Source of the DNA: Candidatus Zhuqueibacterota bacterium
GTDB lineage: Bacteria; Zhuqueibacterota; Zhuqueibacteria; Thermofontimicrobiales; Thiofontviventaceae
Assembly (NCBI GenBank): GCA_016931935.1
Contig: JAFGDW010000237.1
Location: 35,745 to 99,744 of the forward strand
Reading direction: 5' to 3'
DNA: 64,000 nt
Below the pieces are notes generated by a model. That model searched no databases. It was not told where the DNA came from and was given only the letters and a program-made list of their open reading frames with translations. Positions 930-52,661 of this stretch are shown here, in pieces (position 1 is the first letter of the stretch; every line of letters starts with the position of its first letter). The position numbers and the translations under genes are program-made.

Positions 930-2735
930 ATGAAATCTATCATAAAACGGACAATCTTTGCTCTTTTTTGCATGGCCACGTTAGCCCGTGCCCAGGGAAA
1001 ATATAAGAATACCTGGGATTACTACACCCAATTGGAACAGCGACGGCAGGTCATGCTTGCGGCGATTGCCGGTAAAACCTGGATGGAAGGACAAGATTAT
1101 CGCGATCGCATTTATTTGGGTGTTGTGAAATTGTATACTGGCATTGATGAAAAGGCCGGATTACAATATCTGATCGATGCAGTGGACGATTCTGTGCATT
1201 GGTGGTGTTTTGATGTCTATTCGTTCATGGATGCGGTGTTACGTGTCGGGGATAAAATGCCACCTGAACTAATTGAAACGGCAAAATTTCGCCTCGCAGA
1301 AAATTTCAAAGAGGATAAGGGATTCACACAAAATCATAAATTGTTATTCCGAACTGCACGCTACTTGTTTGGGCAAACCTGGCCGGATGGACCGAATTTA
1401 GCCGATGGCATGACACCGCAGCAAGCAAAAGCAGAGGCGGAAGAGTGGATTAATGGATTAATTGATCGCACCGTGACATTAGGTATGTATGAATTCGATT
1501 CGGTAAATTATTGTCAGCTTTATTTAATCTGTTTTACATCATTGTATGATTTTACGCATGATCCGCTGATGCGACAAAAAGCCTGGATGATGATGAACCT
1601 GCTGCTGGCCGATTGGGCGCCGGAATACCTGAGTGGCAACTGGATTGGCGCACACAGCCGTGAAAAATTCAATCAGGTGACCCACACAGTGTTGAACAGC
1701 GGCGTGGCGATGCCGTTTGGCTACATGTTTTTCGGAGATTCTCAATTTCATCCCGAATTACCGGAAGCGATTTTAGCAGGCATTGGTGCGGTGCAAGGTT
1801 TCAGACCGATGCCACTTGTCGGAAATATTGCCACCGACCGCTCTCAGCCGTATGTCCATCGCGAAACCAAATCACCACGCAGAGGACTGGGAATTTGCCA
1901 AGGTGAAATTCCCATCTGGAAATATGATTATGTGACAAAGAATTATGCCCTGGGTTCTTCATATGGGGATATTTCAGCCGTTGAAAATCATCGCTGGGAT
2001 CTGACATGGGTTTCTGAAAAGGATGGCTCAACCTGTTTCTTTATCAATCCATCGTACTCCGCAGAACGATTGCGTTATTTTTTTGATGTTGCGCCGGAGG
2101 GAATACTTCAGGAGATAACGCGGCAGCGTCCTTATTATAGCGATCCCAATAAATGGATCGAAGGCTCAGTTTATGAAGAACTGTGCCAATACAAAAACAC
2201 GATTATCGCACTTTATAATATCCCGGAAAACACCCGAAATGGTCATGTTAATGGATTTTTCCCGAAAATAATTGAAGAACGCAACGAAGACAGTGATGGC
2301 TGGATTTTCTGTAAATCGGATTCAATTTACTTCGCTGTAAAACTGCTGACGAAAGGCACATGGCACGAAGAACCGGATCATTTCCGGCTGACATTGAATG
2401 ACCGCCGGACAGGCGTCATTATGGAGGTGGCTCAGATTTCTGAATACCCGTCATTTGAGGCTTTTAAACAACAGATCGAAAGCAATGCTTTGAAAATCGA
2501 TCTGACAAATCTTCATATCACCTACACCAATTCTCACAGTGATAAGCTTAATTTTACCTATGGAAAAGAACGAATCATAAATGGGAAAAAAGTAAATTTT
2601 AAAGCGTGGCCTTTATTCAGTGGGCCGTTTGTAAATTCAAAAATGGGAAGTAAAATAATCAATATCCAATATGGTAAAGAGAAATTTATTTTAGATTTCA
2701 ATGATTTTAGTGTTCATCGCGAAATGGTTTATTGA
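930..2735 (+). CDS. Secreted hypothetical protein with alpha-helix-rich toroid-like N-terminal region; possibly a polysaccharide lyase/glycosidase-like fold
   Basis: It has a cleavable signal peptide (MKSIIKRTIFALFCMATLARAQG). The ORF is 601 aa and ATG-initiated. I recognised no diagnostic catalytic motif. Confidence 0.45.
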   Translation: MKSIIKRTIFALFCMATLARAQGKYKNTWDYYTQLEQRRQVMLAAIAGKTWMEGQDYRDRIYLGVVKLYTGIDEKAGLQYLIDAVDDSVHWWCFDVYSFMDAVLRVGDKMPPELIETAKFRLAENFKEDKGFTQNHKLLFRTARYLFGQTWPDGPNLADGMTPQQAKAEAEEWINGLIDRTVTLGMYEFDSVNYCQLYLICFTSLYDFTHDPLMRQKAWMMMNLLLADWAPEYLSGNWIGAHSREKFNQVTHTVLNSGVAMPFGYMFFGDSQFHPELPEAILAGIGAVQGFRPMPLVGNIATDRSQPYVHRETKSPRRGLGICQGEIPIWKYDYVTKNYALGSSYGDISAVENHRWDLTWVSEKDGSTCFFINPSYSAERLRYFFDVAPEGILQEITRQRPYYSDPNKWIEGSVYEELCQYKNTIIALYNIPENTRNGHVNGFFPKIIEERNEDSDGWIFCKSDSIYFAVKLLTKGTWHEEPDHFRLTLNDRRTGVIMEVAQISEYPSFEAFKQQIESNALKIDLTNLHITYTNSHSDKLNFTYGKERIINGKKVNFKAWPLFSGPFVNSKMGSKIINIQYGKEKFILDFNDFSVHREMVY

Positions 2736-2784
2736 TTTAAATAATGTTAGCCATCAGACACAAAGGTACGAAGAATACGTAAAT

Positions 2785-3801
2785 ATGACCACACGTGAAC
2801 GATTTAAAGCCGTCGTGAATTTTCAACATTTTGACAGATTGCCTATTATCGAGTGGGCTGAATGGTGGGATAAAACGATCGAGCGCTGGCATCAGGAAGG
2901 ATTACCAGCAACCATAACAGATCGTTATGATATCTGCCGGCACTTTGGCCTGGATATCTACAAGCAACACTGGTTCTCCCCACTGGGACACGGGTGTCCA
3001 GAGCCACCATCTCATGGCGCGGCAATTATTAATTCGATAGTCGAATATGAAGATATTACCGAATTTTTGTTTCCTGAAGCTGTAATTGATGATGATAAAT
3101 GGACACAATGGGCGAGAGAGCAACAACGCGGGGATGTTGTGTTATGGTTCACACTTGAAGGTTTTTTCTGGTTTCCCAGAACACTATTAGGCATTGAAAA
3201 ACATCTCTATGCATTTTATGAACAACCTGAACTTTTACATCGCATCAACAGCGATCTAGTTCAATGGATGATTAAAGTAGTTGAAGAACTCTGCACTATA
3301 TGTCAGCCGGATTTTATGACGTTCGCTGAAGATATGAGTTACAATAACGGGCCGATGCTGTCGAAAGAGCATTTTGATGTTTACATGCGGCCGTATTATG
3401 ATGCAATTATTCCGGTTCTGAAAAAATATGATATTATTCCAATTGTGGATTCGGATGGCGATATTTCGATGCCATTACAGTGGTTCGAAGACGCCGGCAT
3501 TAAAGGGATACTTCCACTTGAACGGCAAGCAGGTGTTGATATTGCGGAGTTGCGCCGACATTGCCCGAACACAATATTTATCGGTCATTTCAATAAAATG
3601 ACAATGGATAAGGGCGAATCATGCATGCGTTCAGAATTCGAACGTCTTCTACCCACAGCAGCACATGGCGGATTCATGGTCAGTTGCGACCATCAAACAC
3701 CTCCTGGTGTCTCGTATTGCGATTATCAACTTTATCTTCAGCTTTTCAGGGAATATGCAGAAAAAGCAGGGCAATTATCCCACTGTGAATTATTAAAATA
3801 G
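2785..3801 (+). CDS. URO-D family protein (MtaA/CmuA-like methyltransferase fold), paralog 2
   Basis: I moved the start to the first ATG after the upstream stop (MTTRERFKAVVNFQHFDRLPIIEW…). The URO-D-like core and the C-terminal HGGFMVSCDHQTPP motif parallel ORF 2-661. Confidence 0.7.
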   Translation: MTTRERFKAVVNFQHFDRLPIIEWAEWWDKTIERWHQEGLPATITDRYDICRHFGLDIYKQHWFSPLGHGCPEPPSHGAAIINSIVEYEDITEFLFPEAVIDDDKWTQWAREQQRGDVVLWFTLEGFFWFPRTLLGIEKHLYAFYEQPELLHRINSDLVQWMIKVVEELCTICQPDFMTFAEDMSYNNGPMLSKEHFDVYMRPYYDAIIPVLKKYDIIPIVDSDGDISMPLQWFEDAGIKGILPLERQAGVDIAELRRHCPNTIFIGHFNKMTMDKGESCMRSEFERLLPTAAHGGFMVSCDHQTPPGVSYCDYQLYLQLFREYAEKAGQLSHCELLK

Positions 3802-5949: not shown

Positions 5950-5970
5950 TCGTAGATGAGTGGAAAAAAA

Positions 5971-6121
5971 AAGGCGCAGGCTCAGCCGAAGGTAGAAATG
6001 GCATGGTGCTTTGCTCATGTCGGCGTTTCACAAGTATTTGTAGTGTTCGCTGCGAAACTTCTTGGATAATGCAAAAATTTATCAAATGGTATTCTTAGCC
6101 TTAGCCTTCAACTTCGCCTTT
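5971..6121. repeat. Intergenic GC-rich palindromic element of the GGCTNAGCC / GCCTTAGCC word family, long version
   Basis: AAGGCGCAGGCTCAGCCGAAGG and CTTAGCCTTAGCCTTCAACTTCGCCTT flank about 100 bp. The words are shared with the elements at 10433 and 25566. Confidence 0.4.
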
Positions 6122-6152
6122 CTTCAATCATCAACTATTGCAGGAGGAATAA

Positions 6153-10580: not shown

Positions 10581-11525
10581 ATGAGTAGCACAGCTTTAAT
10601 TTTTCACATCCAGCGATTTTCAATCCATGATGGTCCGGGAATTCGGACGACGGTTTTTTTTAAAGGTTGTTCATTAAGTTGTTTTTGGTGTCATAATCCG
10701 GAAGGCCGGCATGCTTATTCAGAAATTCAATTCGTCGCCTCCAATTGCATTGGCTGTGGTGAATGTGTCTACGTATGTGAGCATCATGCTCATCAGCTAA
10801 AAGATGGTGAACGATTTTACAGCCGTGCTCTCTGTGTAAATTGTGGTAAATGCGCCCAAAATTGTTTCTCCGGAACGCTTGAATTAATCGGCAAGCGAAT
10901 GACCGTGAAGCAGGTGATGGATGAAATACTCCGGGATAGCGCATTTTATGAATCATCGAATGGTGGTATTACGTTATCGGGTGGCGAGCCCTGTTTAAAA
11001 AGTGTATTCATCAGAACGCTGTTGGAACAATGTAAACAACAGAACATACATACAGCGCTTGAAACGTGTGGCAATTACAAATGGGATAAATTAAATTCAT
11101 TACTGCCGTTTACGGATTTGGTTATGATGGATATTAAATTAATGAATCCGGACAAGCACAAACAGGTGACCGGCGATTCTAACAAACGGATCATTACCAA
11201 TGCCCGACAACTGGTATTAACCGATAAACCGATTATTTTCCGCACGCCCATTGTCCCAACGGTTAATGACACGATTGAGGAATTTAGTGAGATTGTTGAC
11301 TTCATTGAAGAATTAATCGAATTACGCCTGAAACGGGGCAAAGCTTCAACAAATGATGCGAATATTCAACTGGAATTGCTGCCGTTTCATCAACTGGCAT
11401 CGGATAAGTACAAACATTTGGGACAGGACTACAAGGCAGCGCAACTGATCCCGCCGGCCAGTGAAAAGATGCATGAACTGGCTGAAATTGCTAAAAAGCA
11501 CGCAATTGATGTGAAAGTAAGGTGA
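10581..11525 (+). CDS. Glycyl-radical enzyme activating enzyme (radical SAM) with inserted two-cluster ferredoxin-like domain
   Basis: It has HDGPGIRTTVFFKGCSLSCFWCHNPE (CX3CX2C radical SAM) plus CIGCGECVYVCEHHA and CVNCGKCAQNC. This insertion is characteristic of non-PFL-type activases. Confidence 0.9.
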   Translation: MSSTALIFHIQRFSIHDGPGIRTTVFFKGCSLSCFWCHNPEGRHAYSEIQFVASNCIGCGECVYVCEHHAHQLKDGERFYSRALCVNCGKCAQNCFSGTLELIGKRMTVKQVMDEILRDSAFYESSNGGITLSGGEPCLKSVFIRTLLEQCKQQNIHTALETCGNYKWDKLNSLLPFTDLVMMDIKLMNPDKHKQVTGDSNKRIITNARQLVLTDKPIIFRTPIVPTVNDTIEEFSEIVDFIEELIELRLKRGKASTNDANIQLELLPFHQLASDKYKHLGQDYKAAQLIPPASEKMHELAEIAKKHAIDVKVR

Positions 11526-11544
11526 TCGTGAATTTGCTAAGACC

Positions 11545-11577
11545 ACCGATGCTATCGCTCGAAGCGCTGGCATCGGT
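11545..11577 (+). other. Branched hairpin with outer stem ACCGATGC/GCATCGGT enclosing a CGCTcgaAGCG mini-palindrome, between activase and GRE genes
   Basis: I read it directly from the sequence. The outer stem is identical to that of the hairpin at 15762-15796. Confidence 0.45.
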
Positions 11578-11618
11578 ACCTGGAAGCAAATAAACTTTAT
11601 TCATCTTAAAAATGAGAA

Positions 11619-13853
11619 ATGACTATGGAAAACAATACATACACATACCAACAGCGCATCGATGCACTACGCGCCACGAAACTGAAACATACGCAGGAAA
11701 AATGGGATTATATCGGAGTGTTAGATTATGACGATTACGCGCTCATCCTTCCCCCGGTTGAATATAGAGAGAAAAAGCATTTGGTCAGCGCCTCCGGCCT
11801 GGAAATAACAGATGTGTTGTATACGAAATTTGTACCGAAAACGAACCATCCCGGCGGTGGATTTTTTGGCGCGCGCATCTGTGGCGAGAATTTTGGAAAG
11901 ATGCTGGAAATACATCCTGTTTATATTGATCCCTTCAGTTCGTTAGCCGGATCATTTATGATGATTTTGCTATCATATCGCGATCCGTATTGGAATCCTG
12001 ATTTCAACTTTTCTCATTTGGAAAACGAACATAAAAAATATAAAATTACATTGCATGGAATTGGAGCAGCTCAACATTTTTGCCATGATATGACAATCGG
12101 TTTTGAACTTGGCTGGAAAGGCATTCTCGACAAGATTCGCCATTATCGCACACTAAACACCGATGAAGAGGCAACCGAATTATACGATGGCCTGGAAGAT
12201 ATAGTATCGGGATTCCAAAACTGGATCGGACGCCATGCTGTTGCAGCCCGGGAAATGGCGGCCGCGGAAAAGAATCGGTTACTAAAACAAAATCTGTTGG
12301 AGATTGCTGAAATTAACGAGAAGCTGGTTTCCGAACCCCCAACCACATTTCGGGAAGCCTGCCAATGGATGCTGTGGTACCAGATAGCAGGCAAAATGTA
12401 TAACGCAGGCGGCTCGCTTGGCAGAATCGATCAGTTTCTGCTTCCATTCTATGAACGCGATATTACTGCCGGAATCCTTACGGATGAAGAAGCTATTTTT
12501 CATATCGCGTGTCATTTCATTCATGATACAAGTTACATTCAACTGGGCGGGCCCGATGAAAACGGACATGATGCTACAAATAAATTGTCCTATCTTGTGC
12601 TTGAAGCTGCGCACCGGTTAAAAATTCCCATGAATGTAGGTGTCTGTGTCGGAGAGAAACTGGATACTCAATTGTTAAGGCGTGGTGTTGAAATTTTGTT
12701 TGAGGACAAAACCGGGATTCCAAAATTTCTTGGTATTGATGTAACAAGCAAGGATTTTACGAAAAACGGTTATCCGATTGAATTGGGACGAGACCGTGTA
12801 TATTGCGGCTGCAACTGGCATGCAATACCCGGACGGGAATATACAATGAATGATTGTGTTAAACTAAACCTTGGCGTCGTTTTTGAAGTTGCCTTCTATG
12901 ACATGATGGATGATAAGAATACCCATCCATCCGTCGCTGAATTATGGAAACGCTACGAATACCATATGTCGCGCGCTGTTGATATTATTGCGCAGAGTAT
13001 GGATTTTCATCTCGATCACATGTTTCAAGTATTCCCGGAACTCCATCTGGATTTGTTATGTCACGGCCCAATTGAAAGAGGGCGAGATGCATCACATGGC
13101 GGTGTTGAATTTTATAATCTGGGTTTGGATGCCGCAGGGCTGGCCACTGTCGCTGATTCATTTGCTGCGCTTGAGCAGCGTATCGAAATTGAAAAGCGTT
13201 TGACCTGGCAGGAATTAACGGATTACTTGAAGTCGGATTGGGCGGGCACCGATGGCGAGCGCGCCCGGCTAATGATGAAGAAAGCGCCTAAATTTGGCAG
13301 CGGCGGCAGTCTGGCCGATGATTACGCAATACGGGTATCACGTTTATTTACGAATTATGTCATCGAACATCCGACACCCAAAGGTTTCAAAATTCTTCCG
13401 GGTATCTTTTCGTGGGCGCTCACGGTTCAATTGGGAAAAGATGTAGGCGCAACACCCAATGGACGTCACGCCTACGCTTCAATTACACACGGCCCGAATC
13501 CCGAGCCTGGCTTTCGCAAAGATAGCGCGCCATCCGCATTGGCAGTGGCGGTCGCAAAAGTGCAACCAGGCTACGGCAACACTGCCCCAATGCAAATCGA
13601 ATTGGATCCCGGCCTTTCCAGAGATGAAGAAAACATTGAAAAATTAATGAGTCTGATAAAAACCCATTTCGAGTTGGGTGGCACACAAATTAATATGAAT
13701 ATTTTGGACAAGCAGAAAATAGTGGAAGCGCATGAAGATCCATCTCGACATCCGGATTTAGTGGTGCGTGTTACAGGATTCAGCGCCTATTTTGCCAGCC
13801 TGTCACCGGAACTGAGGCAGGTGGTGGTGGACAGGATAGTAACAAGTGAGTAA
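11619..13853 (+). CDS. Glycyl radical enzyme (PFL-fold), divergent; non-canonical Cys loop
   Basis: It carries the C-terminal glycyl radical motif RVTGFSAYF. It also has ATPNGR and REACQWMLWYQ…GGSLGRIDQF motifs that align with PFL landmarks. The Cys loop reads VYCGCNWH where PFL has CC and eliminases have GC[VI]E. Confidence 0.85.
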   Translation: MTMENNTYTYQQRIDALRATKLKHTQEKWDYIGVLDYDDYALILPPVEYREKKHLVSASGLEITDVLYTKFVPKTNHPGGGFFGARICGENFGKMLEIHPVYIDPFSSLAGSFMMILLSYRDPYWNPDFNFSHLENEHKKYKITLHGIGAAQHFCHDMTIGFELGWKGILDKIRHYRTLNTDEEATELYDGLEDIVSGFQNWIGRHAVAAREMAAAEKNRLLKQNLLEIAEINEKLVSEPPTTFREACQWMLWYQIAGKMYNAGGSLGRIDQFLLPFYERDITAGILTDEEAIFHIACHFIHDTSYIQLGGPDENGHDATNKLSYLVLEAAHRLKIPMNVGVCVGEKLDTQLLRRGVEILFEDKTGIPKFLGIDVTSKDFTKNGYPIELGRDRVYCGCNWHAIPGREYTMNDCVKLNLGVVFEVAFYDMMDDKNTHPSVAELWKRYEYHMSRAVDIIAQSMDFHLDHMFQVFPELHLDLLCHGPIERGRDASHGGVEFYNLGLDAAGLATVADSFAALEQRIEIEKRLTWQELTDYLKSDWAGTDGERARLMMKKAPKFGSGGSLADDYAIRVSRLFTNYVIEHPTPKGFKILPGIFSWALTVQLGKDVGATPNGRHAYASITHGPNPEPGFRKDSAPSALAVAVAKVQPGYGNTAPMQIELDPGLSRDEENIEKLMSLIKTHFELGGTQINMNILDKQKIVEAHEDPSRHPDLVVRVTGFSAYFASLSPELRQVVVDRIVTSE

Positions 13854-16539: not shown

Positions 16540-17158
16540 CCGTCACGACAGGTCGCGGACGATTTATATTTCGGTTTTGCCACCGGATGGGAAGATATTT
16601 GTTGCAAAAACGAACCGTTGGTTCCCATGGATTTTTTCAAGAGTGTGGTCGTACCGCGTTATAGACGAATTCGTGTCCGTCCCGAAATGGTTCGAAATCA
16701 TCTTGATTGCAAGTTAAATATTTAAATTATATAAGAAAGTATGACAAGCTGGAAGCTTATCGTACTTTACCGGACAGACACGAATTAGCATGAAACTTCA
16801 CACTGCCGGAATTGACAAATGGTATACCGGTTGCAATTGCGATGTCCGGCTGCTGTTGCCGCATTTCCTGGAAGCCGGTATTAATTGCCTGTTTCCGCAT
16901 GAAGTCAATAGTTGTATTCATCCCGCGCAGTTGCTAAATGAATACGGCAAAGACCTGAGAATAATGGGGGGTTTCGATAAATTGGAAATGATTAAGGGCA
17001 AAGAAGCGATTTAAAAATACATGGAAAGCCTGGCGCCATTGGTCGAGTGTGGGGGATATATTCCATTTTGCAACCACCGGTGCCCGCCGGATGTAAAGCC
17101 GGAGAATTTTTTGTATTATCTGAATTTGAAAGAGCAGATGTTCGGGGTAAAAATGTAA
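16540..17158 (+). pseudogene. Decayed third URO-D/MtaA-like paralog (N-terminal third missing, in-frame stops)
   Basis: Pieces in one frame (16460-16717, 16790-17014, 17021-17158) align with the C-terminal two-thirds of the 2-661 and 2785-3801 paralogs (…NRWFPWIFSRV… / …GGYIPFCNHRCPPDVKPENF…). They are interrupted by TAA at 16718 and 17012, and by TGA. Confidence 0.55.
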
Positions 17159-17203: not shown

Positions 17204-17980
17204 GTGAATATCAACACCGGAAAAACGATTCGGTTGAGCGATTTTATTCATCCAAAGGATAAACGCTGTTTAATGGTAGATACAACAATCACATCTACGC
17301 TGGGCGCAATCACAGGATTGGAAGATTTCGGTACTGTACTGAAAAGTATTAATGAGTTGGTGGATGGAATAATAATTAATCCGGGACAACTTGAACATCA
17401 GGCGGAGCAACTCGGCGGCAAACGTCGCGCAACTCCGATTGTGCGCGTCGACTGGACGAATGCCTATCGTCACAACGATTTCTGCCTGCCCGTTTCTAAT
17501 GTGAAACGATTGATGATTTCAAACGGCGATGACGCATTCCAGCTTGGCGCTTCTGCAGTAATCGCCAGTCTACTGCTGGGATTTAACGACGAGTTCGAAG
17601 CCAATAATATCAAGGAGCTTTCGCTATTGGCCAGAGAATGTCATCCGATTTCCATGCCTGTTATCATCGATATTCGCCCGATTGGTCCCAAAGTATCACT
17701 CGGTAATTTTAGTGAAAGTATTAAACTGGGAGTGTCGTTCATGCTGGAGCTTGGCGCTGATGCCTTAATTATTCCCACCTGCGATTCGGAGACATATCAA
17801 ACAATTGCCCGGTGGATAAGTGTGCCTGTACTGCTCAGACTAAACGAATTTCCGCCCGAAAGTAACATGAAGCAAATGTTTGACGCCGGTGTTGCCGGGA
17901 TCGTTTTAGCGGAAGATATTTTTGCTGTATCCGATTATGCACAAAAAATTGAAAATCTGAAAACAATCATACATCAGTAA
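17204..17980 (+). CDS. DhnA-type class I aldolase paralog (archaeal FBA / ADH-synthase / LsrF family), apparently lacking the Schiff-base lysine
   Basis: It has a GTG start with AAGGAG 8 nt upstream. It aligns along its length with the N-terminal domain of the next gene. It has …DTTITS… where the paralog has AADHG, and GADALIIPT where the paralog has GADALKIPY. Confidence 0.65.
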   Translation: MNINTGKTIRLSDFIHPKDKRCLMVDTTITSTLGAITGLEDFGTVLKSINELVDGIIINPGQLEHQAEQLGGKRRATPIVRVDWTNAYRHNDFCLPVSNVKRLMISNGDDAFQLGASAVIASLLLGFNDEFEANNIKELSLLARECHPISMPVIIDIRPIGPKVSLGNFSESIKLGVSFMLELGADALIIPTCDSETYQTIARWISVPVLLRLNEFPPESNMKQMFDAGVAGIVLAEDIFAVSDYAQKIENLKTIIHQ

Positions 17981-17989
17981 AGGAATACA

Positions 17990-19276
17990 ATGTCAGTATC
18001 AGCAGGTAAATCAGTCAGATTAAATCGGTTATTCAATCCGAAAGATGGCAAAGCTGTATGTGTGGCAGCAGATCATGGCTGGATGTCCGACCCGACTGCA
18101 AATGTCATGGAACTGGAGAGCATTTTACATAAAGTCGTGCAAGGTGGCGCGGATGGTATTCTCATCAGCTTCGGCACAGCGCTGCGGCTTGGCCACATTA
18201 TACAGGGGAAAAATTCACCGGCCATGTTGATCCGTGCCGATTGGATGAATTTGCCACGGTTAGGCGGCGCCAATGTTAGCAATATCCTGCCGGTTGTTAA
18301 TTTTAAAAAAATGGCAACTTCGTTTGCCAAAGATGCGCTGTTGGTTGGCGCATCGGCAATTACTATTTATTACTTTATTGGCTATAATGATGAATTTGAA
18401 ACCATAAATATAGAACAATCTGCAATGTTTGCCCGCGAATGCCGCAAAATTGGCTTGCCGTTAATCATAGAGCCGATGGCAATCGGTGGCATGGTTTCCG
18501 GTGTCAACATTGCTGAAATCTTGATTGCTTCAGCGCGTATTGCGGTGGAAATTGGCGCCGATGCCTTAAAGATACCCTACACCGGTGATGTCAAAACGTT
18601 CAAACTGTTAGTAGATCAATCGAGAGTCCCTGTGTTAGTTCTCGGTGGTGCAAAATCGGATGTGCCGCGCGATGCACTGGAACTGGTGGATGAAGCGTTG
18701 CAGGCAGGCGCTAGCGGCACTGTCTTCGGACGCAATGTCACCAAGGCCACAGATCCGCAAAAGATGGTTGCCGACCTGTGTGCTTTGGTTCATGAAAATA
18801 AATCGCTCGATGAAATTTTTGGAGAAACAAGCAAATCAGGTTACCGGCTGAAAGCCATTCCTGAAAATTGTACCGGCTGCCAATTATGTGAAATTGTCTG
18901 TACACAATTCCATGAAAAAAACTATGGCATAAAAAGCGCGCGAATTAAAATCCACGCAAAAGGAAGTGAACCGGCTTTCAAACCATCCGTTTGTACACTT
19001 TGCGGGAAATGTGTCAACGCATGTGAACCGGGCGCGCTGACAATAGGAGATAAAGGCTATCTTGTGCTTGATAAATCACGTTGCAACGGCTGCGCCCATT
19101 GTATGGTAGCCTGTCCGTTTGGCGTTATTACCATGAATGCGGAAACGAATACACCAATCTTTTGTGATTTGTGTTTGGGCGATCCGCAATGTGTAAAATG
19201 GTGCAAACGTGATGCGTTAACGTTGGTGAAACGAAAAGAAAATGATGTAGCTAACAAGCTTGGGAATGAGAATTAA
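17990..19276 (+). CDS. DhnA-type class I aldolase fused to C-terminal four-[4Fe-4S] ferredoxin domain (AorA/YdhY-like)
   Basis: The N-terminal domain has GKSVRLNRLFNPKDGKAV…AADHG…GADALKIPYTG…GGAKSD…GRNV. The C-terminal 150 aa carry CTGCQLCEIVC, CTLCGKCVNAC, CNGCAHCMVAC and CDLCLGDPQCVKWC. Confidence 0.8.
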   Translation: MSVSAGKSVRLNRLFNPKDGKAVCVAADHGWMSDPTANVMELESILHKVVQGGADGILISFGTALRLGHIIQGKNSPAMLIRADWMNLPRLGGANVSNILPVVNFKKMATSFAKDALLVGASAITIYYFIGYNDEFETINIEQSAMFARECRKIGLPLIIEPMAIGGMVSGVNIAEILIASARIAVEIGADALKIPYTGDVKTFKLLVDQSRVPVLVLGGAKSDVPRDALELVDEALQAGASGTVFGRNVTKATDPQKMVADLCALVHENKSLDEIFGETSKSGYRLKAIPENCTGCQLCEIVCTQFHEKNYGIKSARIKIHAKGSEPAFKPSVCTLCGKCVNACEPGALTIGDKGYLVLDKSRCNGCAHCMVACPFGVITMNAETNTPIFCDLCLGDPQCVKWCKRDALTLVKRKENDVANKLGNEN

Positions 19277-19370
19277 ATAACACCGTCTGTGTTCATGAAT
19301 ATCTCTTAATTATGATAACGTTACATAGGCCTGGCCGTGTGTTGATTATTAGTGAGCTTAAACTTTGTTT

Positions 19371-19417
19371 GACATCCCCCTGAATCCGCCTTTGAAAGGG
19401 CGGCAAAGGGGGATGTC
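19371..19417 (+). promoter_or_regulatory. Long bulged hairpin GACATCCCCC…GGGGGATGTC with inner CCGCCTTT-gaa-AGGGCGG stem, in the 226-bp spacer before AOR
   Basis: I read it directly from the sequence. There is no flanking U-tract on either strand. Confidence 0.35.
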
Positions 19418-19502
19418 AAAAGTTGAACAAGTTATTTAATTCAGAAATTTAAATAATTCATCATCAAAGATACTCTCTCTACAATTATAAGGAGCAACTT
19501 GC

Positions 19503-21311
19503 ATGTTACTTGAACAGCGAGGATATAAAAATAAAATTTTGTACGTTGATTTAACGACCGAAAAAATTTGGACAGAAACGCTTGATGAAAAAGTGATGCG
19601 ACTTCTGCTCGGAGGGAAAGGATTGGGCTCATGGCTCTTATACAAGCATATGAAACCCAAAATCGATCCACTCTCACCGGAAAACGTTCTCATCTTTGTC
19701 GTTGGTCCATTGACTGGTACAACGGCGCCAACTTCCAGCCGGTTTGGTATTGTTTCGAAAAGTCCGGCATCGCATACATTTCTTGATTCTTATTGCGGCG
19801 GTTTCTTCGGTCAAATGATCAAGTACGCCGGTTATGATGCAATCGTTATTAACGGCGCTGCAAATAGTCCAAAAGTCCTCGTCATTAATGATGATGACAT
19901 CAGCATCGACGATGGCAGTGAAGTCTGGAACAAAAATACACATGAATCTACCGAGTATCTGACATCAAAATATGGCGCTGATATGAAGACGGCCGTAATT
20001 GGCCCCCCGGGTGAGCGATGCGTGCCGATTGCGGGCATTTTTTGCGATGTGAGAACGCTTGGACGAGGCGGCGCCGGCGCTGTCATGGGTTCCAAAAAAT
20101 TGAAAGCGATAGCCATTAAAGGCAGCGGCACTGTTGAAATAACGAACCAGAAAGAATTTGAGAATGCTGTTTGGGTGACTCATCGAATGTTGCGTATGAG
20201 TTCGCAGGTAACTCGTCTATCGAACGATGGCACCGTGAATATTCTGGATTTGGTAAATGCATCCGGAGCCTTGCCCACGCGAAATTTTCAATCCGGTGAA
20301 TTTGAAGAAGCCGATAAACTGACCAGCAAGAACTGGAAAAAAGACTACTGGATAAAAAGCGCGGCTTGCTTCGGTTGCCCGATGGCCTGTACGAAAATAT
20401 CACGGTCGAAAAAACATGGTATCGTTCTGGATGGCCCTGAATATGAAACCATTTTTGCAATGGGCTCCAACTGCGGCGTGACCGATCATGAAGCGATTAT
20501 TTATGCCAATTATTTGTGCGATCTATATGGTATTGATACGATGAGCACCGGAGCTATTATTGCCTTTGTCATGGAACTGTATCAGAAAAAAATGATCTCC
20601 ACAGATGATTTGAGCGGCATTAAAGCGACGTGGGGGAGTGGCGATACACTAATACGCCTGACGGAAATAATTGCGACCGGTGAAGGTATCGGTGAACTGC
20701 TGAGCAAAGGCGTCAGAGAAATATCCAAACATTTTCCGGGCAGTGAAGAATTTTCGATGCATGTTAAAGGCCTGGAAATGCCTGGCTATCTTGCTCGCGC
20801 TGCCAAGGGGATCGGATTAAGCTACGCGATTTCTGAACGGGGGGCATGCCATTTGAAAGGCTCACCATTGACAGAAATTCTTGGCGGCGCTGATCCGTTA
20901 ACGGCTGACGGCAAAGCCGCCCTGTTCAAATCAAATCAGTTAGATGTTGCTGTTGTTGACTCAGCGATTTTATGCTACTTTGTAAAATTCGGCATCACAT
21001 TAAAAGAAATTTTTCAGATAATAAATCCATGCACCGGATTCGAATATAAAAACCCCAAAGAATTGGAAGAAGTGGGCGAACGAATAATTACACTGACCCG
21101 ATTGTTTAATACACGCGAAGGATTCTCCAAAAAGGATGATATCCTTCCCAAACGCTCGCTTGCAGAACCAATACCATCCGGCAATGCGAAGGGACATGTT
21201 GTTGAACTGGATACGCTGCGGTCAGAATATTATAATTTGATGGGATGGAATGACGACGGTATTCCCACTGAGGCTACCATTCAGAGATTGGCTTTAAACG
21301 ACATTTTGTAG
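19503..21311 (+). CDS. Aldehyde:ferredoxin oxidoreductase family (tungsten/molybdopterin AOR)
   Basis: AAGGAG lies upstream. It has the AOR N-terminal domain (KILYVDLTTEKIW…) and the EYETIFAMGSNCGV cluster-binding region. At 602 aa it is typical AOR length. Confidence 0.9.
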   Translation: MLLEQRGYKNKILYVDLTTEKIWTETLDEKVMRLLLGGKGLGSWLLYKHMKPKIDPLSPENVLIFVVGPLTGTTAPTSSRFGIVSKSPASHTFLDSYCGGFFGQMIKYAGYDAIVINGAANSPKVLVINDDDISIDDGSEVWNKNTHESTEYLTSKYGADMKTAVIGPPGERCVPIAGIFCDVRTLGRGGAGAVMGSKKLKAIAIKGSGTVEITNQKEFENAVWVTHRMLRMSSQVTRLSNDGTVNILDLVNASGALPTRNFQSGEFEEADKLTSKNWKKDYWIKSAACFGCPMACTKISRSKKHGIVLDGPEYETIFAMGSNCGVTDHEAIIYANYLCDLYGIDTMSTGAIIAFVMELYQKKMISTDDLSGIKATWGSGDTLIRLTEIIATGEGIGELLSKGVREISKHFPGSEEFSMHVKGLEMPGYLARAAKGIGLSYAISERGACHLKGSPLTEILGGADPLTADGKAALFKSNQLDVAVVDSAILCYFVKFGITLKEIFQIINPCTGFEYKNPKELEEVGERIITLTRLFNTREGFSKKDDILPKRSLAEPIPSGNAKGHVVELDTLRSEYYNLMGWNDDGIPTEATIQRLALNDIL

Positions 21312-25694: not shown

Positions 25695-27800
25695 ATGCAC
25701 ATTTTGGGGCTTCACATTATTGACTTTAGTATCATTCTAATTTATATAGTCTTCATTCTCTGGCTGGGAAAACGTGCAGCAGATAAAACGAAAGATACCA
25801 GTGATTTTTATCTTGCCGGCCGTAAGCTGGGTAAATTCTATCAATTTTTTCTCAATTTTGGAAATTCCACCAATGCCGACCAGGCCATGGCAGTTTCTCG
25901 TGAGATTTATCGCCAGGGCATCGGTGGCATGTGGATTCAGTATTTGGTACTATTCCTGACACCGTTTTATTGGTTCACAACTATGCTTTTCCGCCGATCG
26001 CGGCTTGTTACCATCGGCGATTTTTTTACCGAACGATTCCACAGCAAATTTCTCGGCGGCGCGTATGCTGTGTTCACGTTGTTAATGGCTTTTCTTGGTG
26101 GCGGAGTTGGATTTATGGTCGCTGGAAAAACAATGATGGTGCTTTCACCGAAACCTGCAATACAGTATACGGTTGAAGAAGCTCAAAGCGTCGCGATGTT
26201 TGAAGAATATCAGCTATTAAAAAAGAAAGCAGATCTGGGATTAACGAATGAAGAACAGGCACGTTATGATGAGTTAGTTGAGCGCAATAAAAAAGGTGAA
26301 TTATGCGCTGTCATTTCCTATACGAATGAAATTGCATTTTATTTTATCTACGCGGTAATCGTAGGAGTTTATACGATGTTGGGAGGTTTTCTCGCCGCAG
26401 CAATCACTGACGCTATTCAGGGAGTGCTCATTATTACGTTCTCAATGTTGCTTATCCCGATCGGATTGAATAAAATTGGTGGCTTTGCCGGACTTCACGC
26501 CTCGGTGCCGGATTATATGTTTGAGCTGTTCGGATCGGCATCGATGAGTGAGTATGCCTGGTATACTATTCTCGCAATGGTGATTGCCAATCTGGTTTCA
26601 ATAGTTGCCAGCGCGCCGATGATGGCAACCGCCGGTTCAGCCAAAGACGAAAATACCGCTCGCTTTGGCATGATCGGCGGTATGTTCTTCAAACGTTTTT
26701 TAATGATTTTGTGGGCACTTACAGGACTTTTAGCAATTGGCCTCTATACAGGCAAGCTTCATGATCCGGATTTGATTTGGGGATTTATGACCAATGATTT
26801 ACTTTTCCCTGGCGCAATTGGATTAATGCTATCCGGAATTTTAGCAGCGAATATGTCATCGCTGGATGCCGCTTCAGTCACAAATTCCGCTTTATTTATA
26901 AAAAACATCTACCAACCATTTGTAACGAACAAATCAGAAACGCATTATATTAACGTGGGGCGAATTGTTATCGCCGTTACTCTGCTTGGCGGTATTTGGG
27001 CAGCTGTTTTCATTGGCAATCTGCTTGATTTATTTAAATATTTTATTTCCATACCGGCTATTTTCGGTGCGCCTATCTGGCTTGCATTTCTGTGGCGCCG
27101 TCTCACAAAAACGGCAGTTATTATTCAGGTGTTCGTCTGTTTCACTATTTATGCTATTATTCCCAATGTATTTCAGAGCATCGATGCCATTAAATCAAAT
27201 GAACATTTTCTGCTTCAGACAAAGCCGAAAACAGTCACTATTTCGACTGGCGCTTTGAAGGAAGATGTTGAAGCGGGACGGGCGCAAAAAGTTGGTGACA
27301 GTATAAAAAAAGAGCATACGATTCAACCTGCAGGCATATTTTTTGACAAGGTAGCGTTATCTAATCCGGAAGATAGCAATTCCCCCCAACTTGGTCTCGG
27401 GCGATTTCACGCAGAAATCTGGATTTTAAGCTGGTTTGGCATCGATTTTACAGAATTCACCAAAGCACAGCTTGTTACGACGCGCTTTCTATTCGATGCA
27501 TTATTTCCATTTTTACTGCTTTTCATATTAAGCTATCTAACGCGACCAACTCCCATTGAAAATCTCAATCGATTTTATGGAAAATTACATACACCTGTGA
27601 AACCGAACGCGGAAGAGGAAAATAAAGCTCTGGAATATGCATTTAGTCATCCCGATTTGTTTGAACATGAGAAAATATTTCCCCGTTCACAGTGGGAAAT
27701 TTTGAAACCCTCAAAGCAGGACTTATATGGATTCGGGGGAAGCTGGTTGTTGGTTTTCTTTATTTTATTTTTATTATGGCTGATGATATCGATAAAATAG
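25695..27800 (+). CDS. Sodium:solute symporter (SSF) family transporter with long C-terminal extension
   Basis: It has at least 13 TM segments. The N-terminus is typical of the solute:sodium symporter (SSS) family (…ILWLGKRAADKTKDTSDFYLAGRKLG…). Confidence 0.8.
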   Translation: MHILGLHIIDFSIILIYIVFILWLGKRAADKTKDTSDFYLAGRKLGKFYQFFLNFGNSTNADQAMAVSREIYRQGIGGMWIQYLVLFLTPFYWFTTMLFRRSRLVTIGDFFTERFHSKFLGGAYAVFTLLMAFLGGGVGFMVAGKTMMVLSPKPAIQYTVEEAQSVAMFEEYQLLKKKADLGLTNEEQARYDELVERNKKGELCAVISYTNEIAFYFIYAVIVGVYTMLGGFLAAAITDAIQGVLIITFSMLLIPIGLNKIGGFAGLHASVPDYMFELFGSASMSEYAWYTILAMVIANLVSIVASAPMMATAGSAKDENTARFGMIGGMFFKRFLMILWALTGLLAIGLYTGKLHDPDLIWGFMTNDLLFPGAIGLMLSGILAANMSSLDAASVTNSALFIKNIYQPFVTNKSETHYINVGRIVIAVTLLGGIWAAVFIGNLLDLFKYFISIPAIFGAPIWLAFLWRRLTKTAVIIQVFVCFTIYAIIPNVFQSIDAIKSNEHFLLQTKPKTVTISTGALKEDVEAGRAQKVGDSIKKEHTIQPAGIFFDKVALSNPEDSNSPQLGLGRFHAEIWILSWFGIDFTEFTKAQLVTTRFLFDALFPFLLLFILSYLTRPTPIENLNRFYGKLHTPVKPNAEEENKALEYAFSHPDLFEHEKIFPRSQWEILKPSKQDLYGFGGSWLLVFFILFLLWLMISIK

Positions 27801-27826
27801 ATTTTCTGAACAAGAAAGAATTAATC

Positions 27827-28858
27827 ATGGAATATAGTGGAAAGTATTCAATATTCAATTCCAATACGATCAAAACATATCCGCTTCGCACGCGGCAGAA
27901 CAAAGTCAAGAAAGATCAGCTTATTTTTCCTGAACAGATAAAGCAGTGGAATTTGAGTCTCTCTGAGCATATTACTTCTAAAATAAATTTATTGGCAAAA
28001 TCAGTTGTTGATTGTCGGCAAACCAACAAACCAGTCGTTTTATTTTCAGGCGCGCATTTAATAAAAAGTGGAATGGGACCGTTGATTATTGACCTTGCTA
28101 AACATCAATTACTAACACTTGTGGCAGGAAATGGCGCCACAGCCATTCATGATTTTGAGCTGGCATTAATAGGGGAGACAAGCGAATATGTGCCTGACGC
28201 TTTGGGTAAAGGACAATTTGGCATGGCATACGAATTTGCCTATATTAATGAAGCGTTATCGTTAGGTAATAAGTACAAACTCGGCTATGGTGAATTATTG
28301 GGTAAAATGATTTGTGATGCAGGATTTAGATCAGACATTTTGTGGGAAGTAGTACGTGATTCCTCCCCCGGGAATTTCAGCTGTCGGGAAATCAGTGTAC
28401 TTGCAGCGTGTTATGAAAACAGTGTACCGTTTACTGTACATGCGGGAATTGGCGTGGATGTTATCGATCAACATCCGTCTTTCGATGGTCAGGCTAAAGG
28501 TGGTTGTTCCGGTCGTGATTTCCTTATTTTCACGAATGAAATTTGCAAATTCACAAATGGCGGTGTAGTGATAAATATCGGCAGTGCGGTTCAGGGCCCT
28601 GAGGTACTTCTCAAAGCGATATCAATGGCAGCTAACGCTGGAAACACTCCACATGATATTTTAACCGCTGATTTTGATTTGCGGAATTACGATTCGGAAA
28701 AGATGACAGATGAGTCTTTCCATGGTTATTATTTTCGTGATCAAAAAAGTATTGTAACACGAATTCCACTGGCGTTTAACGGTAATGGTTTGTATATTCA
28801 GGGAGACATTAAGCAGACAGTGCCATTGCTGTATAAAACGATTATGGAATTGATCTGA
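27827..28858 (+). CDS. Deoxyhypusine-synthase-like (DHS-like NAD/FAD-binding domain) protein
   Basis: I moved the start to the first ATG after the upstream stop. The core …VVLFSGAHLIKSGMGPLIIDLAKHQLLTLVAGNGATAIHDFE… matches the DHS pattern (SNLISSG…VDVLVTTAGG..ED). The assignment is tentative. Confidence 0.4.
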   Translation: MEYSGKYSIFNSNTIKTYPLRTRQNKVKKDQLIFPEQIKQWNLSLSEHITSKINLLAKSVVDCRQTNKPVVLFSGAHLIKSGMGPLIIDLAKHQLLTLVAGNGATAIHDFELALIGETSEYVPDALGKGQFGMAYEFAYINEALSLGNKYKLGYGELLGKMICDAGFRSDILWEVVRDSSPGNFSCREISVLAACYENSVPFTVHAGIGVDVIDQHPSFDGQAKGGCSGRDFLIFTNEICKFTNGGVVINIGSAVQGPEVLLKAISMAANAGNTPHDILTADFDLRNYDSEKMTDESFHGYYFRDQKSIVTRIPLAFNGNGLYIQGDIKQTVPLLYKTIMELI

Positions 28859-30010: not shown

Positions 30011-31909
30011 ATGAAAATTGAACGGATAAAGGTGATTCTGGAAAAAATTAAGAGAGTGAAAATAGCAGTTTTGGGTGATTTCTGCCTTGATGCCTATTGG
30101 ATGTTGGATTCATGGGGATCTGAAATTTCACTGGAAACAGGGCTAAGAGGTGAAGCAGTAGAAAAACAAAAATATTCACTTGGAGGTGCATCAAATATTG
30201 CCGCGAACCTGGCAGCATTAAATCCAGCAAGTATTCAGGCAATCGGCGTGATCGGAGATGACCTGTTTGGCAATGAACTCGTTCGTCAATTAATAGATTT
30301 GGGTGTCAATACCGACGGATTAATTATTCAAAAAGAGAACTTCAATACGGTTACTTATTGTAAACAAATTAAAGATGGCGTTGAACAACCACGTATTGAT
30401 TTCGGTATTTTTAATCGACGGACGAATGCTACGGATAAAATTCTGCTTCAAACATTGCGGACTGCGCTTGCAAGAACAGATGTTCTCATTATCAATCAGC
30501 AAGTGCCAGGCAGTATCACAAATGATATGTTTTTAGACGGTATCAACGATTTGATCAATGAATTTCCGGATAAAACAGTTTTGGTTGATTCGCGGCATTA
30601 TAGCCATTGTTTCAAGAATGTCTATCTAAAAGTTAATGAATTCGAAGCAGCGCGAATGAATAATGTGGATATTGCAGTTAATGATAAGCTATCATTAAAG
30701 GACGTTCATAATTATGCAGATCAGCTCTTTGAAAAATATCATAAACCAGTGTTTCTTACCAGAGGGTTTAGAGGTATCTTTGTTCGTGACAGCAATAGTT
30801 CCTTTGAAATCCCGGGAATTCAACTGATCAAAGAAATTGACTCAGTTGGAGCCGGGGATACAACAGTGAGTGCACTATCGTGTTGTTTGGGTGCAGGTGT
30901 TTCTCCACTTGAAGCTGCTAAATTCGCAAATTTTGCTGCGGCAGTCACTGTACAGAAATTATATCAAACAGGTACCGCTTCAGCGCAAGAAATATTGGAA
31001 ATTGCTGCAGATCCAGACTATATCTATCAATCGGAATTAGCAGAAGATATCCGCCAAGTGAGGTATTATAATTTCTCGGAAATAGAAATTTGCTATGAAC
31101 TGCAATCGATTGCTTTAGGGAAAATTCAACATATTGTTTTTGATCATGACGGGACGATCAGTACGCTAAGGCAGGGATGGGAAGCAATTATGGAGCTGGT
31201 TATGATTAAAGCCATTCTTGATCAGCAATATGAGAACGCTGATGAAACACTCTATCATAGAGTGCGAAATCGTGTCCGTGAATATATAGATAAGTCCACC
31301 GGAATTCAAACAATACTCCAGATGGAAGCTCTCGTTGGAATAGTGAAAGAGTTTGGAATTGTACCAGTCGAAAATGTTTTGGATAAATTTGCCTATAAAG
31401 AGATCTTCAATAATGCACTGATGGAAATGGTTAATAAGCGAAGAAAAAAAATAGAGCGCGGGGAACTCGATGTCACGGATTATACTATGAAAGGCGCCGT
31501 GATATTTTTAAAGCAATTAAGAGAGATGGGGAAAACACTTTATCTCGCTAGTGGTACAGATGAAAATGATGTTATTGCTGAAGCTAAAATATTGGGTTAT
31601 GACTTTCTATTTAATGGCGGCATTTACGGAGCAACCGGTGATGTTAAGAAATATTCAAAGAAAATTGTCATCGAGAAAATTCTAAAAGAGAACAATTTGA
31701 ACGGTGCGGAATTGGCTTGTTTTGGTGATGGGCCAGTGGAAATACGCGAATGCCGAAAAAAAAATGGAATTGCAATCGGAATTGCCAGCGATGAAATTAG
31801 AAGGCATGGGATAAATATTGATAAGCGTGCTCGATTAATCAAAGCAGGTGCCCATTTGATAATTCCGGATTTTTCTCAGATGAATAACCTGTTGGAAATA
31901 CTATTTTGA
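30011..31909 (+). CDS. Bifunctional PfkB-family sugar kinase (RfaE/HldE domain-I-like) / HAD-superfamily phosphatase fusion
   Basis: The N-terminal domain has KIAVLGDFCLDAYWM…GGASNIAANLAALN…DSVGAGDT. The C-terminal domain has HAD motif I, IVFDHDGTIS, and GDG near the end. Confidence 0.7.
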   Translation: MKIERIKVILEKIKRVKIAVLGDFCLDAYWMLDSWGSEISLETGLRGEAVEKQKYSLGGASNIAANLAALNPASIQAIGVIGDDLFGNELVRQLIDLGVNTDGLIIQKENFNTVTYCKQIKDGVEQPRIDFGIFNRRTNATDKILLQTLRTALARTDVLIINQQVPGSITNDMFLDGINDLINEFPDKTVLVDSRHYSHCFKNVYLKVNEFEAARMNNVDIAVNDKLSLKDVHNYADQLFEKYHKPVFLTRGFRGIFVRDSNSSFEIPGIQLIKEIDSVGAGDTTVSALSCCLGAGVSPLEAAKFANFAAAVTVQKLYQTGTASAQEILEIAADPDYIYQSELAEDIRQVRYYNFSEIEICYELQSIALGKIQHIVFDHDGTISTLRQGWEAIMELVMIKAILDQQYENADETLYHRVRNRVREYIDKSTGIQTILQMEALVGIVKEFGIVPVENVLDKFAYKEIFNNALMEMVNKRRKKIERGELDVTDYTMKGAVIFLKQLREMGKTLYLASGTDENDVIAEAKILGYDFLFNGGIYGATGDVKKYSKKIVIEKILKENNLNGAELACFGDGPVEIRECRKKNGIAIGIASDEIRRHGINIDKRARLIKAGAHLIIPDFSQMNNLLEILF

Positions 31910-52636: not shown

Positions 52637-52661
52637 TGATTTGAATCAGCGGAGAATAAAA

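Follow-up and report, generated by a model that had tools for sequence, protein, structure and literature searches.

A DhnA-type aldolase domain fused to a WorS/AorA-type iron–sulfur domain beside an aldehyde:ferredoxin oxidoreductase gene in uncultured bacteria

Introduction

Most aldehyde:ferredoxin oxidoreductases (AORs) are described as broad 'aldehyde detoxifiers'. In the archaeal non-phosphorylative Entner–Doudoroff branch, 2-keto-3-deoxy(phospho)gluconate aldolase, KD(P)G aldolase, is followed by the AOR-family glyceraldehyde:ferredoxin oxidoreductase; the two are separate, unlinked proteins. LsrF of E. coli (P-HPD thiolase) belongs to the DhnA family of class I aldolases but is a thiolase, not an aldolase. 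The system described here has its closest described relatives in LsrF, in the ADH synthase MJ0400 of M. jannaschii and the T. tenax fructose-bisphosphate aldolase (FBA), in the enzyme WorL–WorS and in AorABC of Aromatoleum aromaticum (8C0Z). It is a cassette of three genes in DNA of Candidatus Zhuqueibacterota bacterium (assembly GCA_016931935.1, contig JAFGDW010000237.1, positions 35,745 to 99,744). This whole stretch of 64,000 nucleotides (nt) is called the window. The cassette contains an open reading frame (ORF) that joins a DhnA-type aldolase domain to a WorS/AorA-type Fe–S domain, a gene for a degenerate paralogue of the aldolase and an AOR-family gene.

In WorSL, WorS packs against WorL with its N-terminal half, the clusters being 10.8 Å apart, and the C-terminal helix of WorS/AorA drives 'nanowire' polymerisation (PMC12318220). 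For the PfAOR/AorB/WorL clade the same structural paper of 2025 gives types BF, N, M and U only. In the WOR classification of 2026, Class II is defined as WorL plus an adjacent four-cluster IPR017896 protein, without an FAD subunit, WorABC, Tat signal or membrane anchor, and ferredoxin is the expected acceptor for the WorL–WorS type (PMC13328260). An enzyme domain fused to WorS is described in the text of neither PMC12318220 nor PMC13328260, and an aldolase is mentioned in neither. No aldolase, DhnA, DeoC or such fusion is mentioned in the main text of the 2026 classification, the supplementary neighbourhood tables lying outside this check; the sole use of 'fused' there concerns an unrelated ModBC transporter (PMC13328260). 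Full-text literature searches on AOR or tungsten together with aldolase fusion returned nothing relevant. An initial annotation of the window, made from the letters and ORFs only, had said that no described aldolase–AorA fusion was known, and these searches found no published description.

Results

Cassette layout and the Fe–S half of the fusion

The three genes are co-directional and most likely form one enzyme system (Table 1). The pseudo-aldolase gene ends 9 nt before the start of the fusion. The main elements of the initial annotation were found in the ORF list of the window at the positions it had given, and its division of the central ORF into an aldolase half and an Fe–S half was borne out by profile searches (Pfam, NCBIfam). 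The upstream paralogue was absent from that annotation.

Table 1. Features of the cassette and further features of the window (positions are those of the window)
Feature	Position	Strand	Remarks
Pseudo-aldolase gene	17204..17980	+	258 aa, GTG start; first gene of the conserved cassette
Aldolase–ferredoxin fusion ORF	17990..19276	+	428 aa
DhnA-type class I aldolase domain of the fusion	17990..18829	+	residues 1–280
Subfamily-specific loop R82-A-D84-W85-M86-N87...R90...G92...P101	18233..18292	+	absent from MJ0400
E161-P162-M163, strand of the classical W-x-Y (catalytic Tyr)	18470..18478	+	from alignment to T. tenax FBA and MJ0400
Lys194 codon, predicted Schiff-base lysine	18569..18571	+	aligned to MJ0400 Lys184 in 'GADIVKTSYTGD'
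WorS/AorA-type four-[4Fe-4S] domain of the fusion (predicted)	18857..19240	+	residues 290–417
Fusion–AOR spacer with nested inverted repeats	19277..19502	+	226 nt
AOR-family (WorL) tungsto/molybdopterin aldehyde:ferredoxin oxidoreductase	19503..21311	+	602 aa
Intact URO-D-like gene	2701..3801		
Radical-SAM activase, then short glycyl radical enzyme	10581..13853	+	314 aa and 744 aa
Remnant-like C-terminal quarter of a URO-D/MtaA-like gene	16790..17158		in-frame stop
GSU2086-family protein	27692..28858		305 bits, above cut-off
PfkB-HAD fusion	30011..31909		632 aa
Single long ORF	52641..62003	+	3,120 aa

The C-terminal part of the fusion is matched by the 4Fe-4S dicluster models Fer4_7, Fer4_21 and Fer4_11 of Pfam. 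It carries 16 Cys residues in four motifs, all 16 conserved in the family, and is predicted to be a domain for four [4Fe-4S] clusters. The motifs had been given as four CxxCxxCxxxC clusters; this description fits those starting at C294, C335 and C365, but the fourth reads C392-x2-C395-x5-C401-x3-C405. The four best matches in the PDB are small subunits of AOR-family enzymes: WorS (9mqx_E, 7e-20), AorA (8c0z_C, 7.5e-19), WOR5-S (6x6u_B, 8e-18) and BamC (4z3w_E, 8e-12). Foldseek gave template modelling (TM) scores of 0.79–0.81 to WorS (9mqx_E/G). These matches agree with the proposal that the half is an AorA/WorS-type four-cluster subunit, and homology indicates specifically the kind of subunit that docks on AOR large subunits. 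In the AlphaFold2 (AF2) model of the fusion (mean predicted local distance difference test score, pLDDT, 85.4; predicted TM score 0.72), the two domains are joined by a short linker with pLDDT of about 80. In the family alignment only a short, unconserved C-terminus follows the last Cys motif, and the nanowire helix of WorS/AorA is accordingly not evident in the fusion. Solved DhnA-family entries of the PDB contain 10–20 chains each, and the barrels would be a more plausible source of oligomerisation than a C-terminal helix. In three Chloroflexota proteins (P0097, P0099, P0112) the third Cys motif has His in place of the second Cys, C-x2-H-x2-C, which suggests a His-ligated or otherwise altered cluster.

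The likeness to WorL–WorS is that of a large tungstopterin subunit with one [4Fe-4S] cluster and an adjacent four-cluster protein part. WorS is the best match of the Fe–S half and WorL (9mqx_D) the second-best match of the AOR. In the cassette, unlike in WorL–WorS, the WorS part is the C-terminal domain of a larger protein, placed behind an aldolase barrel of 280 residues and accompanied by a pseudo-aldolase gene; genes for Bfu (WorABC) or FAD subunits are absent, and no conserved nanowire helix is evident. Homology to AorABC extends over AorA and AorB. The AorC-type FAD/NAD subunit is absent from the cassette, and AorA is free-standing and polymerising, whereas here its counterpart is fused to an aldolase. 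The cassette holds only its three genes, with no FAD, Bfu or Tat features found. By the operational rule of June 2026 the enzyme files as WOR Class II, a class that does not anticipate an enzyme domain on WorS.

The AOR and the spacer

The AOR gene encodes a full-length AOR-family enzyme, as the initial annotation had it. Pfam scores are 250 bits for AFOR_N and 418 bits for AFOR_C. Scores against PDB entries are 441 bits for P. furiosus AOR (1aor), 437 for WorL (9mqx_D), 431 for 9g7j and 390 for AorB (8c0z_A). Thr243, Glu313, Tyr427 and His448 and the [4Fe-4S] ligands Cys288, Cys291, Cys295 and Cys494 (PfAOR numbering) are all kept. The first four are the residues conserved in aldehyde-oxidising WOR members (PMC13328260). 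The enzyme is predicted to be catalytically intact; tungsten rather than molybdenum in its pterin cofactor is assumed from homology to W-containing AORs. Glycolytic coupling of an FBA to a glyceraldehyde-3-phosphate:ferredoxin oxidoreductase (GAPOR) was considered and rejected: the AOR is of the PfAOR/WorL type, and the GAPOR equivalog model scores 49.5 against a cut-off of 1300 bits, over the N-terminus only.

The spacer before the AOR gene contains two perfect, nested inverted repeats, of 14 nt (19368–19381/19407–19420) and of 12 nt (19270–19281/19431–19442). Its RNA fold has a predicted energy of −64.7 kcal/mol (z = −3.97). It is not terminator-like and has no T-tract. No Rfam family and no molybdenum cofactor or tungstopterin riboswitch was found in the spacer or in the region upstream, and a second copy of the element was not found in the window. 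The spacer may be a small inserted element or a hairpin for mRNA processing or stability.

The aldolase half of the fusion

Residues 4–278 match the DeoC/DhnA family (Pfam PF01791, 75.6 bits, cut-off 23.8). The NCBIfam model PRK07226 gives 180 bits, under its cut-off of 241. The top PDB match of the barrel is MJ0400, an ADH synthase (2qjg, 2e-37), followed by T. tenax FBA and then by LsrF. Foldseek on the AF2 model gives the same order, with TM scores of 0.86 to MJ0400, 0.82 to archaeal FBA and 0.80 to LsrF. Lys194, invariant across the fusion family, aligns with MJ0400 K184, which corresponds to T. tenax K177 on strand 6. D28 aligns with MJ0400 Asp33. The motifs of the phosphate site, GGAKS (219–223) and GRN (247–249), are present. 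Invariant residues of the barrel include D28, H29, G30, K194, G219, G220, S223, G247, R248 and N249. The TIM-barrel fold, Schiff-base Lys, Asp and GG and G-R-N motifs are thus shared with MJ0400 and T. tenax FBA; the differences are the replacement of the catalytic Tyr by Met, Leu or Ile, the extra R-A-D-W-M-N loop, scores below both equivalog cut-offs, the fusion to an Fe–S domain and the pairing with a dead paralogue. LsrF is likewise alike in fold, keeps the Schiff-base Lys and has no Tyr at the catalytic position of FBA.

The extra loop (R82–P101) is invariant in 31 diverse fusions. Inside the AF2 model, pLDDT falls below 50 only at residues 86–98, and the loop is a candidate interface or active-site lid. 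The strand of the classical W-x-Y reads 'IIEPMAIGG' in the fusion, 'VVWSYPRGG' in T. tenax FBA and 'IAMMYPRG' in MJ0400. All of 69 fused sequences have E161 and P162, followed by L, M or I at position 163. Glu161, two residues before the lost Tyr, may act as the general base. The loss of Tyr is a trait of the subfamily, the canonical residue being kept in only 16 of 136 relatives. The R-x-D-W-x-N/S motif also occurs outside the fusions, in relatives at 30–45% identity. Most of the unfused DhnA-family proteins in that range (P0140–P0280, about 270 aa) have in common the R-x-D-W-x-N loop and a Tyr-less '(V/I)E(P/A)-hydrophobic' strand. They look like a large uncharacterised subfamily of DhnA proteins, in which no characterised member was found. 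The Pfam family 'Cgl0159-like' was discarded as the identity of this subfamily, its score being marginal (26.7 against 27) and the matches of relatives inconsistent; a literature search on 'Cgl0159' was empty.

The pseudo-aldolase

The upstream gene product is a weak full-length match to the DhnA family (PRK07226 79 bits, DeoC 24 bits). In an alignment of 58 of its orthologues with 69 fused proteins and MJ0400, the orthologues have S or T at MJ0400 Asp33 and I, A, V or L at Lys184, and have lost the GG and GRN phosphate motifs. The fused barrels retain Asp33, Lys184 and both loops. Since the Schiff-base Lys, the Asp and the phosphate motifs are lost, the gene is termed a pseudo-aldolase; judged by these residues, it is a catalytically dead paralogue of the fused barrel.

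Conservation and distribution

The fused architecture of 415–430 aa is found in more than 120 clusters at 90% identity, down to 48% identity, in NCBI, JGI, ENA and Logan assemblies. The fusion protein of the window is 100% identical to a protein of a candidate division KSB1 contig. Public annotations name such proteins '4Fe-4S dicluster domain-containing protein' or 'class I fructose-bisphosphate aldolase'. In an exhaustive HMMER scan of 1.84 billion representatives, both halves occur together in about 6–9 clusters at 50% identity; the fusion family is therefore compact. A scan of one genome per GTDB species yielded 76 loci, all from metagenome-assembled genomes (MAGs), with the labels KSB1, Zhuqueibacterota, Bacteroidota or Ignavibacteriota (bins so labelled), Aminicenantes, Planctomycetota, Thermotogaceae, Neomarinimicrobiota and, many times, Chloroflexota. 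Together with contigs looked up directly, 81 distinct loci from at least seven phyla are available, 76 of them fused.

At all 68 loci with enough sequence to be informative, the fusion is followed on its own strand by an AOR gene (median gap 28 nt). A survey of other genomes had been proposed with the initial annotation, and fusions adjoining AOR genes are the rule there. The pseudo-aldolase gene precedes that of the aldolase at 78 of 79 informative loci (median gap 27 nt). Loci that look degraded were also seen. In an Anaerolineae MAG (L001/L076, 11312–13106) the AOR is split into three; L047 has a truncated AOR match and no detectable pseudo-aldolase.

In a crude neighbour-joining tree rooted on MJ0400, all unfused orthologues of the aldolase fall in one clade of 7 clusters, which lies 12 nodes deep within 109 fused sequences. 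None of the four loci of this clade has an AOR gene (0/4). This nested clade has lost the Fe–S domain and the AOR together, which is suggestive and is what would be expected if the Fe–S domain serves the AOR. An apparent natural split version, P0101 of contig L085, was rejected: its halves are called separately owing to a frameshift, and the other frame reads through the junction.

Conservation, homology and co-loss together support the conclusion that an AorA/WorS-type subunit has been fused to an aldolase-family enzyme and serves the adjacent AOR.

Discussion

Proposed reaction

The reading judged a little better than even is that the cassette encodes an AOR of the WorL–WorS type in which WorS and the catalytic subunit of a heteromeric DhnA-type aldolase form one chain, one aldolase subunit being live and one dead, and that the aldehyde is oxidised on release. 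The live TIM barrel would bind a phosphorylated ketose through Lys194, as a Schiff base, and through the phosphate-binding loops. Cleavage would give a triose phosphate, probably dihydroxyacetone phosphate, and a non-phosphorylated aldehyde, for which glyceraldehyde, lactaldehyde, glycolaldehyde and malonate semialdehyde are candidates. The AOR, docked on the fused Fe–S domain, would oxidise the aldehyde to the carboxylic acid at its tungstopterin. Two electrons would pass from the [4Fe-4S] cluster of the AOR through the four clusters of the fused domain, five [4Fe-4S] clusters in all, to soluble ferredoxin. The very exergonic oxidation of the aldehyde would pull the unfavourable aldol cleavage and limit the build-up of a reactive aldehyde. 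The pseudo-aldolase would be a structural partner in a hetero-oligomer of the ring type usual for the DhnA family. The logic is that of the non-phosphorylative Entner–Doudoroff branch, in which a non-phosphorylated aldehyde released by an aldolase is oxidised with ferredoxin by an AOR-family enzyme; here the link is made by a polypeptide and an operon. The stronger form of the proposal, a substrate-channelling metabolon that would in effect be a sixth architectural class of WOR, with an aldolase/pseudo-aldolase core bearing the WorS wire and the AOR, is advanced tentatively and is given well under an even chance. The channelled oxidation of a particular sugar-derived aldehyde, put forward in the initial annotation, is likewise kept as a hypothesis.

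Several points weigh against an aldolase coupled in this way to the AOR. The catalytic Tyr (MJ0400 Y153, T. tenax Y146), which is the proton shuttle, is replaced by Met163 and by Met, Leu or Ile in the family; of the catalytic Lys and Tyr named as a check in the initial annotation, only the Lys is found. In the phmmer alignment LsrF, too, has no residue at the position of the catalytic Tyr. The NCBIfam equivalog models for ADH synthase (TIGR01949, 154 bits, cut-off 299), archaeal FBA class IA (NF040816, 124 and 430), LsrF (NF006081, 106 and 297) and BagB all score below their cut-offs, and consequently no reaction can be transferred by homology. In the window the AOR gene is the next gene after the fusion but does not follow immediately, as had been stated, being set off by a structured spacer of 226 nt against the median of 28 nt in the 68 loci. 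The frameshifted fusion of L085 is followed by an ORF for a small membrane protein and not by an AOR gene, on a contig that ends 400 nt later. The co-loss is a single evolutionary event, and a Fisher p of 1e-6 overstates independence. Beyond the three cassette genes, no gene family occurs among the flanks of more than 13 of about 78 loci (1,091 flanking ORFs clustered). AOR docking and the channel are both predictions.

Alternative explanations

The loss of the Tyr keeps alive a Schiff-base reaction other than aldol cleavage, such as an LsrF-like retro-Claisen (thiolase) reaction, a transaldolase-type transfer, a decarboxylation or a deamination, that supplies the aldehyde or acid of the AOR. 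The missing general acid/base appears parallel to LsrF, to which the barrel has a TM score of 0.80, and the large DhnA subfamily of the barrel, an uncharacterised one, has an R-x-D-W-x-N loop and a (V/I)E(P/A) strand of its own. Yet of the three main relatives LsrF has the lowest model score, neither lsr and other autoinducer-2 genes nor coenzyme A-related genes occur in the neighbourhoods, and the isomerase–kinase context fits an aldolase step; chemistry of this other kind is considered improbable. The barrel pair could also have no part in supplying the substrate of the AOR and be an oligomerisation scaffold or metabolite sensor for a broad, aldehyde-detoxifying AOR, in place of the polymerising helix of WorS/AorA. 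One barrel is clearly dead and the other has no catalytic Tyr; the nanowire helix is not evident, the flanking genes vary, and AORs of the PfAOR/AorB/WorL clade have broad aldehyde spectra (PMC12318220). What makes a scaffold or sensor unlikely is that the Schiff-base Lys, the Asp and the phosphate motifs are invariant in the fused barrel over 48–82% identity while they have drifted in the paralogue, which points to selection on catalysis, or on ligand binding at the least, and that an unfused orthologue persists in a sugar operon without an AOR.

The same parts could also run in the reductive, biosynthetic direction. Reduced ferredoxin would drive the reduction of an acid to an aldehyde at the AOR, and the tethered aldolase would condense the aldehyde with a ketose or triose phosphate and so pull the reduction, much as aspartate semialdehyde is condensed by ADH synthase or GriI. 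AORs are reversible in vitro, the nearest named relatives of the barrel are condensing enzymes (ADH synthase as the top NCBIfam model, 2qjg as the top PDB and fold match), and a tether is most useful with a scarce intermediate. Against these stand the low score of the ADH synthase model (154, cut-off 299), neighbours that are catabolic (glycoside hydrolases, sugar kinases and isomerases, transporters, and pyruvate oxidoreductase, phosphotransacetylase and acetate kinase genes) and neighbourhoods with no recurring genes of amino-acid or secondary-metabolite biosynthesis, and biosynthesis is accordingly thought rather unlikely. That the fusion is an artefact of assembly or gene calling, by a chimeric join or a missed stop or frameshift, is very improbable indeed. 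The separate calls on the L085 contig would favour it, but that contig is itself frameshifted. The architecture recurs in more than 120 clusters from independent assemblies and at 76 loci of different species, which rules out an assembly chimera, and the linker is modelled with pLDDT of about 80.

Genomic context

In the window the cassette sits in a long run of plus-strand genes that includes a URO-D-like gene, a 397-aa PfkB kinase, an ABC sugar transporter, a D-lyxose/mannose isomerase, a GH-like gene, genes for GxGYxYP proteins and a DUF4432 gene. The operon of the unfused clade begins with ROK, a 614-aa protein, a URO-D-like protein, a PfkB kinase of about 390 aa and a cupin (Lyx_isomer-like); it continues with DUF4432, the live/dead aldolase pair, a second URO-D-like protein and a GH38 alpha-mannosidase. 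This is a sugar context of the isomerase–kinase–aldolase type. Found without an AOR, it speaks for a barrel that acts as a sugar-phosphate lyase with no need of the AOR. Between the window and this operon, the PfkB homologues are 42% and the DUF4432 homologues 53% identical.

Elsewhere carbohydrate genes predominate among the neighbours, which depend on lineage. DUF4432 is found at nine loci of KSB1-type bacteria and Chloroflexota. A subset of Chloroflexota has PfkB and FGGY kinases, a fucose-isomerase-like protein, a class II aldolase and LacI; another has LarA-like, GlcD-like FAD oxidase, GlcF-like and UPF0261 proteins. In Planctomycetota (L002, L027) a GlcD-like FAD oxidase gene lies directly upstream. 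One metagenome lineage (L003) has pyruvate/2-oxoacid:ferredoxin oxidoreductase, phosphotransacetylase (PTA) and acetate kinases. Glycoside hydrolases are among the flanks, and hydroxy-acid genes (LarA-like, GlcD/GlcF-like) accompany the cassette in some lineages. When 114 ORFs from the flanks of 26 non-Chloroflexota loci were pooled for a Pfam census, the outcome was a diffuse carbohydrate signature: xylose-isomerase-like TIM barrels, DUF4432, melibiase, GHL10, 3-keto-disaccharide hydrolase, KDPG aldolase and PfkB. Neither this census nor the clustering of the 1,091 flanking ORFs revealed a partner gene common to all loci from which the substrate could be named, and the partner kinases score far below every equivalog cut-off. 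Sugar catabolism is a reasonable context for the cassette, of which the particular sugar is not nameable; the substrate may differ between lineages or may be a common central metabolite.

The rare-sugar or deoxy-sugar route of the initial annotation is in part retained: in some lineages the aldolase pair repeatedly has DUF4432, a cupin isomerase and a PfkB kinase of about 390 aa as neighbours, but the limited recurrence of any flanking family speaks against a general route. The FGGY kinase gene at 44536, which had been counted as a member, is excluded by distance and strand. It lies 23 kb off on the opposite strand, with a sensor kinase and unrelated genes in between.

Further genes of the window are recorded as follows (Table 1). 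The glycyl radical enzyme, which lies in the same plus-strand run, is far below all NCBIfam equivalogs (best PFL2-3, 274 against 678); it and its activase were rejected as part of the unit, occurring in 0 of 80 related loci and so being particular to the window. The remnant-like URO-D/MtaA piece upstream of the pseudo-aldolase has 24% identity (E = 3e-4) to the URO-D-like gene after the aldolase pair of L063. The pair of GSU2086-family and PfkB-HAD genes recurs near the cassette in L006 (61–62% identity) and more weakly in L018. The longest of the tabulated ORFs encodes 3,120 aa.

At the loci of the unfused pair (L081, L082, L063, L083), URO-D/MtaA-like genes flank the pair on both sides; in L081 the genes concerned are 5419–6423, 10833–12068 and 18324–20822. 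A B12-binding protein, CobW and another URO-D-like gene are near the pair, with GH38 and alpha-amylase-family genes alongside. These loci look like a corrinoid methyltransferase system within a glycan locus, possibly for the demethylation of O-methyl sugars.

Significance

The cassette documents a conserved live/dead pair of paralogues in the DhnA family. The fusion of the electron-transfer subunit of an AOR to a C–C lyase is a 'Rosetta stone' link to the origin of the aldehyde, and as such a rare direct clue to the cellular substrate of a poorly understood tungsten enzyme. It suggests a way in which low-potential reducing equivalents could be obtained from non-phosphorylated sugar fragments in fermentative KSB1, Anaerolineae, Planctomycetota, Aminicenantes and other groups. 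The carriers known so far are all uncultured MAGs, and the system has for this reason escaped biochemical attention. Should the metabolon exist, it would give several uncultured phyla a branch of sugar fermentation that reduces ferredoxin and is independent of NAD, and the physiological substrate of a WOR clade would be readable from its own polypeptide.

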